Translations under genes and position numbers: made by a program
The notes under the pieces: generated by a model
Told to the model about the DNA's origin: nothing
Databases searched by the model: none
What the model saw: only the letters and a program-made list of their open reading frames with translations
Assembly: GCF_013122565.1 (NCBI RefSeq)
Contig: NZ_CP053258.1
Strand: one strand, 5' to 3'
Length of the DNA: 64,000 bases
Source: Escherichia coli
Lineage (GTDB): Bacteria; Pseudomonadota; Gammaproteobacteria; Enterobacterales; Enterobacteriaceae
Shown: positions 5,038 through 64,000 of the stretch, piece after piece
Position numbering within the stretch: the stretch's first letter is position 1
Layout: each line of letters opens with the position of its first letter

Positions 5038-5114
5038 TGGTCGGCACGAGAGGATTTGAACCTCCGACCCCCGACACCCCATGACGGTGCGCTACCAGGC
5101 TGCGCTACGTGCCG
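5038..5114 (-). tRNA. proL: tRNA-Pro
   Basis: 77-nt sequence on the minus strand reading CGGCACGTAGCGCAGCCTGGTAGCGCACCGTCATGGGGTGTCGGGGGTCGGAGGTTCAAATCCTCTCGTGCCGACCA, with a paired acceptor stem, T-loop GGTTCAAATCC and encoded CCA. Confidence 0.85.
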
Positions 5115-11554: not shown

Positions 11555-11947
<393 letters not shown>

Positions 11948-37022: not shown

Positions 37023-38273
37023 ATGGATATAATGAGAAGTGTTGTGGGGATGGTGGTGTTACTGGCAATAGCATTTCTGTTGTCAGTGAATAAAAAGAGC
37101 ATCAGTTTGCGCACGGTTGGAGCCGCACTGCTGCTGCAAATCGCTATTGGTGGCATCATGCTCTACTTCCCACCGGGAAAATGGGCAGTAGAACAGGCGG
37201 CATTAGGCGTTCATAAAGTGATGTCTTACAGTGATGCCGGTAGCGCCTTTATTTTTGGTTCGCTGGTTGGGCCGAAAATGGATGTCCTGTTTGACGGTGC
37301 GGGTTTTATCTTCGCCTTTCGCGTACTTCCGGCGATTATCTTCGTCACTGCGCTCATTAGTCTGCTGTACTACATTGGCGTGATGGGGCTGCTGATTCGC
37401 ATCCTTGGCAGCATTTTCCAGAAAGCCCTCAACATCAGCAAAATCGAATCTTTTGTCGCAGTCACCACTATTTTCCTCGGGCAAAATGAGATCCCGGCGA
37501 TCGTTAAACCGTTTATCGATCGCATGAATCGCAACGAGTTGTTTACCGCAATTTGTAGCGGGATGGCGTCCATTGCTGGTTCGATGATGATTGGTTATGC
37601 CGGAATGGGCGTACCAATTGACTACCTGTTAGCGGCATCGCTGATGGCGATCCCCGGCGGTATTTTGTTTGCACGTATTCTTAGCCCGGCAACCGAGCCT
37701 TCGCAGGTCACATTTGAAAATCTGTCGTTCAGCGAAACGCCGCCAAAAAGCTTTATCGAAGCGGCGGCGAGCGGTGCGATGACCGGGCTGAAAATCGCCG
37801 CTGGTGTGGCGACGGTGGTCATGGCGTTTGTCGCAATTATTGCGCTGATCAACGGCATTATCGGCGGAATTGGCGGCTGGTTTGGTTTTGCCAATGCCTC
37901 TCTGGAAAGTATTTTTGGCTATGTGCTGGCACCGCTGGCGTGGATCATGGGTGTGGACTGGAGTGATGCCAATCTTGCGGGTAGCCTGATTGGGCAGAAA
38001 CTGGCGATTAACGAATTCGTCGCTTACCTGAGTTTCTCCCCATACCTGCAAACGGGCGGCACGCTGGAAGTGAAAACCATTGCGATTATCTCCTTTGCGC
38101 TTTGTGGTTTTGCTAACTTTGGTTCTATCGGTGTTGTCGTTGGCGCATTTTCGGCTATTTCGCCAAAACGTGCTCCGGAAATCGCTCAGCTTGGTTTACG
38201 GGCGCTGGCAGCAGCAACGCTTTCCAACCTGATGAGCGCGACTATTGCCGGGTTCTTTATTGGTTTAGCTTGA
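37023..38273 (+). CDS. psuT: NupC-family (CNT) nucleoside transporter PsuT (YeiM)
   Basis: 416-aa polytopic membrane protein; about 90% identical to the nupX product in this window. Confidence 0.85.
   Translation: MDIMRSVVGMVVLLAIAFLLSVNKKSISLRTVGAALLLQIAIGGIMLYFPPGKWAVEQAALGVHKVMSYSDAGSAFIFGSLVGPKMDVLFDGAGFIFAFRVLPAIIFVTALISLLYYIGVMGLLIRILGSIFQKALNISKIESFVAVTTIFLGQNEIPAIVKPFIDRMNRNELFTAICSGMASIAGSMMIGYAGMGVPIDYLLAASLMAIPGGILFARILSPATEPSQVTFENLSFSETPPKSFIEAAASGAMTGLKIAAGVATVVMAFVAIIALINGIIGGIGGWFGFANASLESIFGYVLAPLAWIMGVDWSDANLAGSLIGQKLAINEFVAYLSFSPYLQTGGTLEVKTIAIISFALCGFANFGSIGVVVGAFSAISPKRAPEIAQLGLRALAAATLSNLMSATIAGFFIGLA
37023..38273 (+). repeat. Dispersed duplication, copy A (psuT coding region; leader motif at 36933-36956)
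   Basis: Near-identical at the protein level (about 90%) to copy B, with shared 5'-leader motifs. Confidence 0.7.
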
Positions 38274-38281
38274 GTTTTATT

Positions 38282-38317
38282 GCCGGATGTACTCGCTTAT
38301 TAAGCGTTGCATCCGGC
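38282..38317. repeat. REP (repetitive extragenic palindromic) element
   Basis: GCCGGATG…CATCCGGC palindrome typical of E. coli REP units, between psuT and yeiL. Confidence 0.6.
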
Positions 38318-38340
38318 AATCGCACTATTGCAAATAATAT

Positions 38341-39000
38341 TTACTGCATCATCCCGGAGAATTTATTCTCCGGGTCCATCTCCAGCGCCAGTCCTGACAA
38401 CTGCTTTCTGTTTTTAATTAGATATCCTTTCTTGCTTTTAATTAATAAACCGTCGTGAATGAATTGTGCGAGAACATATAAAAGATGTCGATAAGAAACG
38501 CCTAAATACTCTGCCGCTTGCGTATGCTTTTCGTGATAAAGATCACCTTCTTGTGAGAGTAATATAAATGCTGCCAGGCGATTCACTAACGGAAATGATT
38601 GATTCTGAGTTAAAGAAACAATATTACGATAATTTTTATGACTTAAGGTGACGCAAAGTTTTCGTAAAAATAGGGTGTCGTTTAATAACAGCGGACGGTA
38701 ATGTTTCATAGGGAGCGCAAGGCACCAACACTCTTCAATAGCCTGTACCGCACGCGGTTCATGGTCTTTATCGATTAACTCAATCTCACCAATAAAACAG
38801 GGGGCGGCAAAGAAATCGATCAGCGACACGCGACCATTAGCTAGCGTGGCGTAAAGCCTGGCGCGGCCTCGCGTCAGGTAAAACAGCCAGGACGGCTGTT
38901 GCCCTTCCTGCACAATGTAGTCACGCGCTAAAAAATGAAACAGCCGCGTATCGGCTGAAACATCCGTTAAAAAGCAATCCTTAAACGCGGATTCACTCAT
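38341..39000 (-). CDS. yeiL: CRP/FNR-family transcriptional regulator YeiL
   Basis: cNMP-binding-like domain plus C-terminal HTH; start trimmed to [10 protein letters not shown]… (219 aa). Confidence 0.8.
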
Positions 39001-39168
39001 CAATTGCTGCTTAAGATCATTATTGTGGATTTCTTTCACGATGTTTATCCGCTATGAGATTTCTCATATTTAGCATACGTACGCTGTTGTTAAGATTCAA
39101 TCATCGGCCCGATCGAAATTTCTTTGCTGTAGAAAAAATAACGCAACTGGAAACAGAGGAAATAAACA

Positions 39169-40209: not shown

Positions 40210-41460
40210 ATGGATGTCATGAGAAGTGTTCTGGGAATGGTGGTATTGCTGACGATTGCGTTTTTACTGTCAGTAAACAAGAAGAAGATCAGCCTGCGTA
40301 CCGTTGGCGCGGCGTTAGTGTTACAGGTCGTGATTGGCGGCATTATGCTTTGGTTACCGCCAGGGCGTTGGGTCGCTGAAAAAGTCGCTTTTGGCGTGCA
40401 TAAAGTGATGGCGTACAGCGACGCGGGTAGCGCATTTATCTTCGGTTCTCTGGTCGGACCGAAAATGGACACCTTATTTGATGGCGCAGGATTTATCTTT
40501 GGTTTCAGGGTGTTACCGGCAATTATCTTCGTCACCGCGCTGGTGAGTATTCTCTACTACATCGGTGTGATGGGGATCTTAATTCGCATTCTCGGCGGTA
40601 TCTTCCAGAAAGCATTAAATATCAGCAAGATCGAGTCATTCGTCGCGGTCACTACCATTTTCCTCGGGCAAAACGAAATTCCGGCGATCGTCAAACCCTT
40701 TATCGATCGTCTGAATCGCAATGAATTATTTACAGCGATTTGTAGTGGCATGGCCTCGATTGCTGGTTCGACAATGATTGGTTACGCCGCGCTGGGCGTG
40801 CCTGTGGAATATCTGCTGGCGGCATCATTAATGGCGATCCCTGGCGGGATCTTGTTTGCCCGCCTGTTAAGCCCGGCAACGGAATCTTCGCAGGTTTCCT
40901 TTAATAACCTCTCTTTCACCGAAACACCGCCAAAAAGCATTATTGAAGCCGCTGCGACAGGGGCAATGACCGGGCTGAAAATCGCCGCAGGTGTGGCGAC
41001 AGTAGTGATGGCATTTGTCGCCATCATTGCGTTAATTAACGGTATTATCGGCGGCGTTGGCGGCTGGTTTGATTTTGAACATGCCTCGCTGGAATCCATT
41101 TTAGGTTACCTGCTGGCCCTACTGGCGTGGGTGATGGGTGTTGACTGGAGTGATGCGAATCTTGCCGGGAGTTTGATTGGTCAGAAACTGGCAATAAATG
41201 AATTTGTCGCTTATCTCAATTTCTCACCCTATCTGCAAACAGCTGGCACTCTCGATGTTAAAACTGTGGCGATTATTTCCTTCGCGTTGTGCGGTTTCGC
41301 TAACTTTGGTTCTATCGGGGTAGTGGTGGGGGCGTTTTCTGCGGTTGCGCCACACCGCGCGCCGGAAATCGCCCAGCTTGGTTTACGTGCGCTGGCGGCG
41401 GCGACACTTTCTAACCTGATGAGCGCTACCATTGCCGGATTCTTTATTGGTTTAGCGTAG
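40210..41460 (+). CDS. nupX: NupC-family (CNT) nucleoside transporter NupX (YeiJ)
   Basis: 416-aa paralog of psuT (about 90% aa identity by eye). Confidence 0.85.
   Translation: MDVMRSVLGMVVLLTIAFLLSVNKKKISLRTVGAALVLQVVIGGIMLWLPPGRWVAEKVAFGVHKVMAYSDAGSAFIFGSLVGPKMDTLFDGAGFIFGFRVLPAIIFVTALVSILYYIGVMGILIRILGGIFQKALNISKIESFVAVTTIFLGQNEIPAIVKPFIDRLNRNELFTAICSGMASIAGSTMIGYAALGVPVEYLLAASLMAIPGGILFARLLSPATESSQVSFNNLSFTETPPKSIIEAAATGAMTGLKIAAGVATVVMAFVAIIALINGIIGGVGGWFDFEHASLESILGYLLALLAWVMGVDWSDANLAGSLIGQKLAINEFVAYLNFSPYLQTAGTLDVKTVAIISFALCGFANFGSIGVVVGAFSAVAPHRAPEIAQLGLRALAAATLSNLMSATIAGFFIGLA
40210..41460 (+). repeat. Dispersed duplication, copy B (nupX coding region; leader motif at 40161-40184)
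   Basis: Paralogous to copy A; shared leader motif ctgaSgggcagaaagccgtcgccc and a conserved ribosome-binding region. Confidence 0.7.
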
Positions 41461-41474
41461 CGCGCAATTTATGA

Positions 41475-41508
41475 GCCGGATAAGATGCGGTCAAGCGTCG
41501 AATCCGGC
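41475..41508. repeat. REP-like palindromic element
   Basis: GCCGGATAAG…AATCCGGC palindrome between nupX and yeiI. Confidence 0.5.
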
Positions 41509-41515
41509 AACATTG

Positions 41516-42604
41516 TTACACCATTGGCACTAATGAAAGCGCGTTATCGGCAGACAGGGTAGGGTTGTTTAAGCTGCCGCTGGCGCGTGAAATTGCCGCG
41601 CAGGCCATCGCAAAACGGGCGCTGTCACGGAAATTGTTTCCCTCCAGAAAGCTATATACCAGGCCCGCCATAAAACCATCGTCAGCACCAAAACTGTCTA
41701 CTGTCGTATGCGCTGGTGCGGTCAGCAAAAATTGTTCTCCATCCTTTTCGCTGCAATAAACTGACTCATCGGGCAAATAAACAAACAGTTGCTGAACACC
41801 TTGCTGATGCAACGCATTCACTGCGGCATTACGGTCAACATCGCTGGTGATCGCCTGTCCCCATAAAATTTCCAGCTCCGGTAAAGTGGGTTTCAGGGTA
41901 TGAATATGCGCCAGCCAGTGTTTGATTTTGCCCGCTTTGAATTCTGAAACGGTATCGACAAACACCGGGATCTCATCAGCGAGGGTAAAGACCCATTCCA
42001 GCGCCTCGGCTGTCAGGTTGCAATCAGCCAGTACCACGCCCGCATGACGAAGTAAATCGCGCGACCCGTTCAGTAGTTGCGGTGTCAACTGTTCCAGCAG
42101 ATGGGTATCGTTAATCGCCAGCACGGTTTGATCGTCTCGATTGGCAATTGCCAGATACGTCGATGTGCTTTGACCATGCAAACGAACGCAGCCGGAGACA
42201 TTCACGCCGGCACGGCGCGTTTCTTCCAGGAGCATTTCGCCATAAAAGTCATCGCCAATCACTGAAAGCAAATGGACGTCGCGGCCTAACAGCGCCAGAT
42301 TGTGGGCGATATTGCGTCCAACGCCGCCCGCCGAGCAATGAATTGTACCGGGATGAGAAGCCGCTTGCGGGTAACGGATATCCGCCATCCCGCGAATATC
42401 CATATTGATTGTCCCCACCACTACGCAGTATTCCTGCTCGGTGAGAATGTAACCTTTGCCTTTAATCCGGCCTTTGCGCATTAAATCCATAATATGCGCC
42501 GCAACGCGCGAACGACTGATTTGCAGCATGTCCGCAATTTCGTTCTGCTGAATCAGCGGGTTACGCCGTAAAATTGCAAGGATCTCCTTTTCCCGGTTAT
42601 TCAT
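41516..42604 (-). CDS. yeiI: PfkB-family sugar/nucleoside kinase with N-terminal HTH domain (YeiI)
   Basis: 362-aa ORF; N-terminal winged-helix (…QNEIADMLQISRSRVAAHI…) fused to a ribokinase-like domain; paralog of psuK. Confidence 0.85.
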   Translation of the reverse strand: MNNREKEILAILRRNPLIQQNEIADMLQISRSRVAAHIMDLMRKGRIKGKGYILTEQEYCVVVGTINMDIRGMADIRYPQAASHPGTIHCSAGGVGRNIAHNLALLGRDVHLLSVIGDDFYGEMLLEETRRAGVNVSGCVRLHGQSTSTYLAIANRDDQTVLAINDTHLLEQLTPQLLNGSRDLLRHAGVVLADCNLTAEALEWVFTLADEIPVFVDTVSEFKAGKIKHWLAHIHTLKPTLPELEILWGQAITSDVDRNAAVNALHQQGVQQLFVYLPDESVYCSEKDGEQFLLTAPAHTTVDSFGADDGFMAGLVYSFLEGNNFRDSARFAMACAAISRASGSLNNPTLSADNALSLVPMV

Positions 42605-60760: not shown

Positions 60761-61771
60761 ATGAGTGCGTTAAATAAGAAAAGTTTTCTTACTTACCTGA
60801 AAGAGGGCGGTATTTACGTCGTTCTTTTAGTTTTGCTGGCGATTATTATTTTCCAGGACCCAACATTTTTAAGTCTGTTGAACTTAAGTAATATTCTCAC
60901 CCAGTCATCGGTGCGTATTATTATCGCGCTCGGTGTGGCAGGGTTAATTGTCACCCAGGGGACCGACCTTTCTGCAGGTCGCCAGGTGGGGCTGGCGGCA
61001 GTAGTAGCGGCGACGTTATTGCAGTCCATGGATAACGCCAACAAAGTGTTCCCGGAAATGGCGACGATGCCGATTGCGCTGGTTATTCTGATTGTCTGTG
61101 CCATTGGTGCGGTGATCGGTTTGATCAACGGTCTGATTATCGCTTATCTCAACGTGACGCCGTTCATTACCACGCTCGGCACGATGATCATCGTCTATGG
61201 CATCAACTCGCTCTATTACGACTTTGTCGGGGCGTCGCCGATTTCTGGTTTCGACAGTGGCTTCTCTACCTTTGCTCAGGGCTTTGTCGCGCTGGGGAGT
61301 TTCCGTCTCTCTTACATCACCTTCTACGCGTTGATTGCGGTGGCGTTCGTCTGGGTGTTGTGGAACAAAACCCGCTTCGGTAAGAACATTTTTGCCATTG
61401 GCGGTAACCCGGAAGCGGCAAAAGTATCTGGTGTCAACGTCGGCCTGAACCTGCTGATGATCTACGCGTTGTCTGGCGTGTTCTATGCCTTTGGCGGGAT
61501 GTTAGAAGCCGGACGTATCGGCTCTGCCACCAACAACCTCGGCTTTATGTATGAGCTGGATGCTATCGCGGCGTGCGTGGTAGGCGGTGTATCGTTCAGC
61601 GGCGGTGTGGGGACGGTGATTGGCGTGGTGACCGGGGTAATTATTTTTACCGTCATCAACTATGGCCTGACGTATATCGGCGTAAACCCATACTGGCAGT
61701 ACATCATCAAAGGGGCGATTATTATCTTCGCCGTAGCGCTGGATTCACTGAAATACGCGCGTAAGAAGTGA
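60761..61771 (+). CDS. mglC: Galactose/methyl-galactoside ABC transporter permease
   Basis: 336-aa polytopic permease. Confidence 0.9.
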   Translation: MSALNKKSFLTYLKEGGIYVVLLVLLAIIIFQDPTFLSLLNLSNILTQSSVRIIIALGVAGLIVTQGTDLSAGRQVGLAAVVAATLLQSMDNANKVFPEMATMPIALVILIVCAIGAVIGLINGLIIAYLNVTPFITTLGTMIIVYGINSLYYDFVGASPISGFDSGFSTFAQGFVALGSFRLSYITFYALIAVAFVWVLWNKTRFGKNIFAIGGNPEAAKVSGVNVGLNLLMIYALSGVFYAFGGMLEAGRIGSATNNLGFMYELDAIAACVVGGVSFSGGVGTVIGVVTGVIIFTVINYGLTYIGVNPYWQYIIKGAIIIFAVALDSLKYARKK

Positions 61772-61786
61772 TGTAATTGTGGATAT

Positions 61787-61836
61787 TGCCGGATGCGCTG
61801 CATCCGGCAATCGGTGCCAAATGCCGGATGCGTCTC
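61787..61836. repeat. Tandem REP elements
   Basis: tGCCGGATGCGctgCATCCGGCaa followed by tGCCGGATGCGtctc; classic REP consensus between the convergent mglC and preA genes. Confidence 0.65.
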
Positions 61837-61841
61837 TGGTT

Positions 61842-63077
61842 TTACAACGTTACCGGGTGTTCTTTCTCTCCCTTCTTAAACTTCACTTCTCCGAGATCAA
61901 TACAACCCACCGGGCAGACGTGACCACAAAGCAGACAACCCACACATTTCTCGGTATTACAATGCGGTGTGCGGGTTTTCTCGCTCCATTCCATCGCCTG
62001 GTGACCGCCGTCGTAACAGGAAATATAACAGCGTCCACAGCCAACACATTTATCAAGATTGATACGGGGATAGACAATATAACTGCGGTCTAAATCTTCC
62101 GCCGGGACAATATTGTTATTCGCCAGACCTACCATCTCCTGCAACGAATCAAATCCCTGATCGGCGAGATAATGCGATAACCCGCTCGCCATATCTTCTA
62201 CGATGCGATAGCCGTACTGCATAATGCCGGTGGTGACCTGTAACGTTGCTGCGCCGAGCAATAAAAACTCCGCCGCATCCTCCCAGGTTTCAATACCGCC
62301 GATACCGCTGATTGGGAAATCGCGCAGTTCTGGATGGGTGCGCATTTGCTGAATGAAGCGCAGGGCGATCGGTTTTACCGCTTTACCGGAATATCCGGAA
62401 ATACTCGATTTTCCGTTAACGATCGGCATACCGATTTTCTGATTAAGATCGATATTGGTGATGGATTTAACGGTGTTAATCGCCGCAATGCCATCTGCGC
62501 CGCCGCGCTTCGCCGCCAGCGCCACTTCGCACATATCACCGATATTCGGCGTCATCTTCGCCAGCATTGGCAGCGTGGAACCCCGTTTCACTGCCCGACA
62601 ATATTTTTCTACCAGCTCCGGGCTTTGCCCGACATCGCTACCCATCGCATGAGAAGTCATTTGCGGACAGGAGAAGTTGCACTCGATCATATCCGCGCCA
62701 GCTTCTTGCACCAGGCGCGCCAGCTCCTCCCATTGCTGCTCATTTTCCCCCATGATCGAAGCGATCAATACTTTGTCCGGGTAATCTTCCTTCAGCCGAC
62801 GCAGGGCGGCCAGATTCTCTTCCAACGGATGTTCAGCAATCTGCTCCATATTTTTGAAGCCGATAAAACCGGTATCTTCTTTCACCAGATGATCAAAACG
62901 CGGCGAGACTTCGTTGGCGATAAAAAAGCCGATCGTTTTAAACACCACACCGCCCCAACCTGTGTCGTAGGCTTTGGCACACATCTCATAGCAGTTGCCT
63001 ACCGGCGAAGAAGAGAGGCAGAATGGGTTGGGAAACTTCACGCCGCAAAAAGTAATCGAAAGATCTTTCGTTAACAT
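61842..63077 (-). CDS. preA: NAD-dependent dihydropyrimidine dehydrogenase subunit PreA (DHOD-like TIM barrel plus 2×[4Fe-4S] ferredoxin domain)
   Basis: About 411 aa; FMN-binding TIM-barrel core and C-terminal CxxCxxCxxxCP motifs ([11 protein letters not shown]…, [12 protein letters not shown]). Confidence 0.85.
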
Positions 63078-64000
63078 GAGCAAGCTCCCTCTAAATAGTG
63101 ATGAATCGCCTCGGCGGCTTCTTTCCCGGTTTTCACGGCATAGACCACGGTTTTGTCACCCTCAACAATATCGCCAGCAGCAAAGACTTGCGGATCGCGG
63201 GTCTGATAATTTTGTGTTTTGATGGTGTTACGCTGCGGCTCTAACTCCGCAAAGGCATCCAGTCTGGCATGCTGACCGACGGCGAGAATAATTTTATCTG
63301 CCACCATCGTCAGTTCGCCCGATAACCGTACATGCTTAAACGTGACTTTATTGCCTTCCACGGCTACTGGCGTGAATCCATCGATGATCGAAACGCCCAG
63401 CTCCCGGGCGCTGGCAAACTCTTTTTCGCTTGCCGGAAACTCATCTAACTCTTCACGCGCTACGCAAGTTACCGCCTGACAGCCGAGAACTTTCAGCGTG
63501 CTGGCTACGTCCATCGCGACATCACCGCCGCCGATAATTAATGCGCTTTGTGGAATGCTGATATCGCCTTGCGCCTGTCGTGCACGTTGCAGGAAGTCGA
63601 CGGCAATCTCAACGTCGCTATGCTCAAACAGCGGTAGCCCGGAACCGCTTGATAACCCCACGGTGACCAGTACCGCGCGGTTTTCCGCTTTCAGTTGCTC
63701 CAGGGTGAGTGTTTTACCGACTTCGTTGTTGCACTTAATGGTCACGCCCATTTTTTCAATACGGGCGATTTCTGCATCCAGCACTGATTGCGGTAACCGA
63801 AATTGCGGAATACCGTTACGCAACCAGCCACCGGGGTGCGCTTCTTTCTCATAAATCGTGACGTCATAACCCTGGTTTGTTAGCGTCACACTGGCCTGCA
63901 ATCCGGCAGGACCTGCGCCAATAATCGCGACTTTGCCGAGCGTTTTAGTACCGGGCTGATAAATTTCCATCCCGGTTTGTTGTTCAAAATCAGTAACAAA
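63071..64000 (-). CDS. preT: NAD-dependent dihydropyrimidine dehydrogenase subunit PreT, C-terminal about 310 aa (N-terminus outside the window)
   Basis: Frame is open to the window edge; FAD/NAD Rossmann motif [12 protein letters not shown]; stop overlaps the preA start. Confidence 0.8.

Follow-up and report, generated by a model that had tools for sequence, protein, structure and literature searches.

The original prediction for this 64,000-nucleotide stretch of Escherichia coli DNA (hereafter the window) placed a tandem cluster of REP elements at 61787-61836, between mglC and preA, and single REPs after psuT and nupX. This raises the question of whether these palindromes are intact REPs, decayed ones or something else, and of what they might do at the 3' ends of the genes that they separate. 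Gene names were taken from the ORF listing and from matches to annotated E. coli genomes, which give three spacers:

psuT/yeiL spacer, 67 bp, convergent: psuT at 37023-38273 (+), yeiL at 38341-39039 (-)
nupX/yeiI spacer, 55 bp, convergent: nupX at 40210-41460 (+), yeiI at 41516-42604 (-)
mglC/preA spacer, 70 bp (61772-61841), convergent: mglC at 60761-61771 (+), preA at 61842-63083 (-)

Every unit falls inside one of these 55- to 70-bp spacers between convergent ORFs, an extragenic location as expected of REPs, and the ORF coordinates confirm the predicted gene context. The preA stop codon occupies 61842-61844; the listed ORF reaches 63083, and the preA annotations of related genomes span 1236 nt. 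According to a recent preprint, convergent-gene spacers are the commonest REP context (bioRxiv 10.64898/2026.03.23.713779). Window and K-12 MG1655 are collinear, with 98.2-98.7% identity, and the E. coli-type backbone assigned to it is sound on that ground rather than by virtue of its REPs. Among 5426 complete E. coli genomes, the best match to positions 36000-60000 reaches 98.2% over 24 kb with identical gene order; this collection, from which Shigella is absent, includes no close relative of the source strain, which may belong to Shigella or to a rarely sampled lineage.

We scanned the whole 64-kb window for paired arms of the form GCC[GT]GAT...ATC[CA]GGC. The scan returned exactly three units, at 38282-38317 (36 nt), 41475-41508 (34 nt), and 61788-61808 (21 nt), against a mean of 0.03 in 300 Markov-1 randomizations of the window, indicating that the pattern is not due to chance. 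The bare 8-mer GCCGGATG shows at best weak enrichment on its own (7 in the window versus 2.9 expected; 3 of 100 shuffles reach 7). Both single units are recovered where they had been placed, and the coordinates of all sites are correct to within 1 or 2 bases, but tandem GCCGGATGCG...CATCCGGC units, as described for 61787-61836, are not what is present there: a short perfect palindrome and a half unit stand in place of two complete units. Rfam, run over the 64-kb window at gathering thresholds, places no family over the three sites. Its matches elsewhere, a tRNA gene at 5041-5114 (-) and a gammaproteobacterial L25 (rplY) leader at 11861-11886 (-), are unrelated to them. The features are as follows:

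38279-38320 (core 38282-38317), no strand: REP-derived single hairpin ATTGCCGGATGTACTCGCTTATTAAGCGTTGCATCCGGCAAT, from comparison with K-12 psuT
41471-41509 (core 41475-41508), + strand (REP orientation): single REP with a decayed head, ATGA for GTAG, then GCCGGATAAGATGCGGTCAAGCGTCGAATCCGGC-A
61785-61811, no strand: 27-nt perfect mini-palindrome, arms ATTGCCGGATGC (61785-61796) and GCATCCGGCAAT (61800-61811), center GCT
61812-61820, no strand: short 9-nt linker CGGTGCCAA, the counterpart in alignments of the K-12 REP/iREP-tail linker ACAGGAGCCAA
61821-61839, + strand: truncated half iREP ATGCCGGATGCGTCTCTGG, the left arm and loop of a z1-like unit with the right arm missing

The psuT hairpin extends from 5 nt past the psuT stop codon to 20 nt before that of yeiL. 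It lacks GTAG and combines the right arm of the K-12 REP with a left arm that is iREP-like (ATTGCCGGATG..GCTTA); its right half is identical to the tail of the K-12 psuT REP, and its left half is like the tail of a z2-type iREP. The nupX unit runs from 14 nt past the nupX stop to 7 nt before the yeiI stop, and the site reads TTTATGAGCCGG in the window versus TTTGTAGGCCGG in K-12. Between mglC and preA, the mini-palindrome begins 13 nt past the mglC stop codon, has no GTAG/CTAC and no stem mismatch, and consists of a 21-nt REP-arm core (61788-61808) that becomes 27 nt when the ATT/AAT extension is counted. The half iREP has GCCGGATGCG at 61823-61832 with no downstream CATCCGGC partner and stops 2 nt short of the preA stop codon. 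It is found in every Escherichia allele examined, and K-12 keeps a full iREP, ATGCCGGATGCAACGCTGGCGCGTTTTATCCGGCCTAC, at the same locus. A BIME would comprise a complete REP and a complete iREP joined by an S or L linker; at 61785-61839 no such pair is present: the tails of two units are fused, and behind them come a short linker and a half iREP.

REPs are targets of IS1397 (PMC1525189), and in E. coli BH100 (NZ_CP024650.2; locus 1180-1260) a copy of this IS3-family element is inserted in the mglC-preA spacer right after CTGG, in the iREP loop. The half iREP of the window likewise ends at CTGG, and from this shared end comes the idea that 61821-61839 might be the relic of an old IS-associated deletion.

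To what extent do these units correspond to REPs? With up to 3 mismatches allowed, a strict 37-nt Y/Z REP consensus has no match in the window. In K-12, canonical GTAG-tagged REPs occupy the three corresponding spacers: one after psuT, two after nupX (iREP-linker-REP), and 3.5 between mglC and preA (REP-S-iREP-linker-REP-S-half iREP). We take these K-12 sites to be REPs from their sequence (GTAG plus the Y/Z pattern of the REP consensus); the NC_000913.3 record as used carries no repeat_region features over 45 kb. In all three spacers, the window units align base for base to the K-12 REPs in their tails, and the mglC-preA site, for which comparison with K-12 had been proposed, indeed aligns to the K-12 REP/BIME array of 3.5 units. 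Their alignment to GTAG-tagged sites indicates that the window units are REP-derived.

A profile built from six K-12 REPs and run against the 64-kb window gives a similar picture. The three sites and the half unit are the top five matches, with nothing comparable elsewhere in the 64 kb (E = 0.002, 0.05, and 0.08 for the three units, the nupX unit being best at E = 0.0023; the half iREP matches at 61836-61822 on the minus strand). Alignment is near full length for the nupX unit only (model positions 5-35) and is limited to the tail half in the psuT and mglC units. Profile positions 1-4 stay unaligned in every unit, and the flanks where the tag is expected read ttatt/aatcg, atga/acatt, and atatt/aatcg, whereas all K-12 orthologs carry GTAG/CTAC. 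With respect to palindrome length (about 30-40 nt with GCC(G/T)GAT/ATC(C/A)GGC arms), the psuT unit has 36 nt, the nupX unit 34 nt, and the mglC unit 21 nt, and 61823-61839 is a half. The stem mismatch is kept as an internal bubble in the nupX unit, appears as an internal loop in the psuT unit, and is absent from the perfect 12-bp stem at mglC.

Positional K-12 alignments and profile matches both establish homology to known REPs. The prediction that these are REP elements stands as a statement of descent, but the units are decayed and none has GTAG/CTAC; similarly, consensus scanning gives a divided answer, with the profile and the K-12 alignments pointing to REPs while the strict consensus finds none and the psuT and mglC units match in their tails only. 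We consider it likely that the units descend from E. coli REP/BIME elements, that they are degenerate and probably immobile, and that they would serve as two-way 3'-UTR hairpins in their three convergent-gene spacers.

All three window forms are common E. coli alleles and not oddities of one strain. Among the 5426 complete genomes, the 70-bp mglC-preA spacer with mini-palindrome and half iREP occurs in 2443 (45%), the window form of the psuT site in 1724, and the single-unit form of the nupX site in 4449. The mglC-preA alleles comprise this 70-bp form, a 126-bp spacer with 1.5 units in O157, and a 242-bp spacer with 3.5 units in K-12. The short allele exists in two sub-variants, with center GCT or GTC, both of which have a perfect 12-bp stem.

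All units fold whichever strand is transcribed (z-scores between -2.1 and -5.8 relative to shuffles). The mini-palindrome RNA forms a 12-bp stem of -19.6 kcal/mol on both strands, next to about -20 to -21 kcal/mol for canonical K-12 REPs, and the psuT hairpin reaches -25.8 and -21.8 kcal/mol on its two strands (z-scores of -5.8 and -5.2). Stems start 5 nt past the stop codon for psuT, 14 nt for nupX, 13 nt for mglC, and 7 nt for yeiI; for preA, an alternative arm pairing starts 10 nt past the stop. The suggestion that REP units act here as terminators is not borne out: no hairpin is followed by a T-run on either strand, and a terminator scan found no hairpin with a T-run in 61600-62000 or at the psuT and nupX hairpins.

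REP hairpins resist 3' exonucleases and mark the steady-state 3' ends of Rho-terminated mRNAs (PMC6061677). In the preprint cited above, REPs between convergent genes are associated with higher expression of both and can act both ways, and terminal REPs have no general effect on mRNA half-life (bioRxiv 10.64898/2026.03.23.713779), so any effect here may be small or context-dependent. Transcription of either convergent gene would allow the palindrome to fold into a hairpin of about -20 kcal/mol without a U-tract. Such a hairpin would block 3'-to-5' exonucleases, thereby setting and protecting the 3' ends of both mRNAs, and might reduce transcription running on into the opposing gene. The units would probably protect or define 3' ends in both directions and might attenuate read-through. 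Terminating ribosomes can stall at REPs that lie within 15 nt of the stop codon (cited in PMC12306157), a range that includes the hairpin starts at psuT, nupX, mglC, and yeiI (5-14 nt); ribosomes may stall at these stop codons.

The mglC-preA spacer of other species bears on whether the units do anything at all. We sampled species-representative genomes with an mglC 3' end (120 loci, 116 usable). A hairpin with a T-run (perfect hairpin, at most 150 nt from mglC) is present in 84 of the 116 loci of other enterobacterial species. Two or more REP arm motifs occur in 6 of the 116, and among these only four Escherichia loci also lack a hairpin-plus-T-run terminator. On these sequences, the REP array in the Escherichia spacer stands where most of the relatives sampled have an intrinsic terminator. 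That most other Enterobacteriaceae sampled have a two-way terminator in this spacer suggests that some 3'-end structure is needed there, which weighs against the strongest competing explanation, namely, that the units are neutral relics, REP-derived but without effect on neighboring genes. Neutrality would sit well with the appreciable frequency of the half-plus-mini, 1.5-unit, and 3.5-unit alleles, and with the lack of a general half-life effect of terminal REPs in the preprint (bioRxiv 10.64898/2026.03.23.713779). The mini-hairpin, however, is the only strong structure left in the short allele, and both sub-variants keep its stem perfect. We regard neutral relics as unlikely, though as a possibility to be taken seriously, and favor two-way 3'-end hairpins.

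How the mini-palindrome arose can be approached through diverged lineages. E69, E1V33, and SCPM-O-B-8794, which are 90-94% identical to the window, have an mglC-preA spacer of the form iREP-linker-REP-S-half iREP. This spacer shares its outer arms, ATTGCCGGATGC...GCATCCGGC, with the window mini-palindrome; the right flank is also the same, and the left flank is close (...GGGATT in E69 versus ...GGATATT in the window). The left flank in E. albertii is of the K-12 type. The mini-palindrome aligns to the iREP tail plus the REP tail of other Escherichia alleles. In its simplest reading, the mini-palindrome looks like a collapsed head-to-head BIME: an iREP-linker-REP would have lost its GTAG-bearing inner halves and the linker (60-82 bp), and the two complementary tails left behind would form the 27-nt perfect palindrome, followed by the short linker and the old half iREP. 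At nupX, a near-full REP would have had its head mutated from GTAG to ATGA, and at psuT an iREP-like left arm would have been fused to a REP right arm. Collapse rather than growth is the direction suggested by four outgroup alleles.

A simple deletion between direct repeats in an SCPM- or E69-type precursor was considered and rejected, the ACGC repeats giving a 24-nt product versus the 21 nt observed. The central nucleotides, GCT or GTC, are explained by no direct-repeat deletion in the precursors examined. Searched against E. coli genomes, the SCPM-type spacer identified no within-species precursor allele at mglC-preA, its matches being other BIME loci. This canonical BIME query matches a median of at least 25 places per E. 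coli genome; the window variants, unlike it, match one place per genome in a megablast search that needs 28-nt exact words and is a weak test for this reason. The K-12/O157/E. albertii allele has a unique left flank, GTGG-TCCGCATTCGGTCA, that starts with TCCGCATTCGG, a 9/11 match to the REP tail GCCGCATCCGG. Possibly this stretch is a further decayed REP arm, in which case the history of the alleles would be more complicated.

The opposite order of events, in which the mini-palindrome is an older small seed and REP/BIME sequence was inserted or amplified later in K-12, O157, and other Escherichia, appears improbable to us. The arms of the mini-palindrome consist of REP tails, which implies that REP sequence existed before it. 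Full units, and never the mini form, are present at the four non-coli or cryptic Escherichia loci examined, and relatives outside Escherichia have an unrelated intrinsic terminator. In favor of an older seed, BIME copy number per locus varies between strains (PMC3333891), and the short allele is frequent, at 45% of genomes. In addition, the window linker differs from that of K-12 at about 3 of 10 positions, indicating that the short allele did not arise from the K-12 form by a recent deletion.

The collapsed-BIME reading leads to a bolder proposal: that GTAG-less palindromes, the one at 61785-61811 and possibly the one at 38279-38320, are natural footprints of BIME/REPIN excision or collapse. 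We give this only a small chance. If it were true, mglC-preA would be a natural experiment with three segregating alleles (mini plus half, 1.5, and 3.5 REPs), suited to testing in vivo loss of REP doublets and the effect of REP dosage on a convergent pair; the ancestral intrinsic terminator of this pair would have been lost. The proposed precursor, an inverted pair of REPs, resembles the REPINs of REPIN/RAYT systems, in which a pair of oppositely oriented REPs folds into one larger hairpin (Bertels and Rainey 2011, PMC3116915; Nunvar 2010, PMC2817692). Unlike a REPIN, which is an intact mobile doublet, the mglC-preA site retains only the outer stem.

Slightly less probable still is the specific version in which TnpA_REP itself excised the inner part of the BIME. 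The enzyme cuts and rejoins BIME single strands in vitro (PMC3333891), and the missing segment is exactly the GTAG-bearing inner part. Reported cleavage, however, occurs at C|T (TGCC|TGAT in z-type iREPs; GCC|TAC) (PMC3333891), whereas the window junction is further inside the stem (GATGC|...|GCATC), and the flanking arms are GCCGGAT, without the type I C|T site. Slippage across the hairpin would yield the product without any enzyme, and we favor such hairpin-mediated slippage over enzymatic excision because the junctions differ from the published C|T sites.

Both GTAG and a stem mismatch are needed for TnpA_REP to bind and cleave, and the enzyme does not act on perfect palindromes (Ton-Hoang et al. 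2012, PMC3333891). The units are probably immobile, because GTAG is absent from all of them and the mismatch is absent from the mglC unit. The three window copies are probably immobile relics that TnpA_REP should neither bind nor cut. The K-12 stretch matching window positions 24357-64000 has no transposase-like gene among its genes. It is very improbable that the window contains a canonical intact BIME cluster and two canonical single REPs that match the consensus and are still recognized by the REP transposase. The units do have the GCCGGAT...ATCCGGC arm motif, at sites with K-12 REP orthologs, but the strict consensus fails at up to 3 mismatches, no unit has GTAG/CTAC, which recognition requires together with the mismatch in published assays (PMC3333891), the mglC unit is 21 nt long with every base of its stem paired, and what had passed for a second "unit" is half of one. 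Least credible of all is that these are ordinary Rho-independent terminators resembling REPs by chance: strong GC-rich hairpins do sit right behind stop codons, but the negative terminator scans of the spacers and the missing T-runs on both strands contradict this identity, and the sequences align to REPs and not to the Citrobacter terminator.

That Citrobacter two-way intrinsic terminator, AAAAAGCCCGGTGCAG...CTGCACCGGGCTTTTTT, occupies the same spacer between the same convergent genes and is likewise a single strong symmetric hairpin. It is flanked by A- and T-runs, whereas the window hairpin has no U-tract and is unrelated in sequence. The window units share the GCC(G/T)GAT...ATC(C/A)GGC arms of E. 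coli REPs or palindromic units (Y, Z1, Z2) and BIMEs (Gilson/Bachellier; PMC3333891), as well as extragenic position between convergent genes, comparable hairpin stability, strain-variable unit number, and K-12-orthologous loci. They differ from canonical REPs in lacking GTAG/CTAC, in the length of the mglC unit (21 nt, or 27 nt extended, versus about 30-40 nt), in the perfect pairing of that unit without the two-base mismatch, and in the presence of only half of a second unit at mglC. For REP325 in yjdMN, the preprint describes a 3'-UTR REP hairpin proposed to protect the upstream mRNA and attenuate read-through (bioRxiv 10.64898/2026.03.23.713779). REP325 is a 12-unit array between tandem genes that was tested experimentally, whereas the window units are single, decayed, convergent, and known from sequence.

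REP/BIME elements, their position between convergent genes, strain variation in copy number, and roles at mRNA 3' ends are long established, and the finding matters little beyond annotation. A scan for the arm motif alone over-calls intact REPs. The window copies should be annotated as REP remnants, because they lack the GTAG tag and, in one unit, the mismatch, both of which the transposase needs. With at least three common alleles, mglC-preA would be a convenient natural system for testing REP function.

The psuT and nupX sites also have a history in common. The two genes are paralogs with about 79% nucleotide identity, and the REP tails downstream of them are homologous (TTAAGCGT(T/C)GCATCCGGCAA). 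Their 3' ends are crossed, in that window psuT resembles K-12 nupX and window nupX resembles K-12 psuT, which suggests duplication of the gene together with its REP, or gene conversion between the two loci. In E. coli NRZ99027-1, an insertion of about 129 bp (about 335-465 of the locus) that is absent from the window adjoins the psuT REP and contains CCCCAGTCACTTACTTATGTAAGCTCCTGGGGATTCAC; this insertion resembles an ERIC/IRU repeat.
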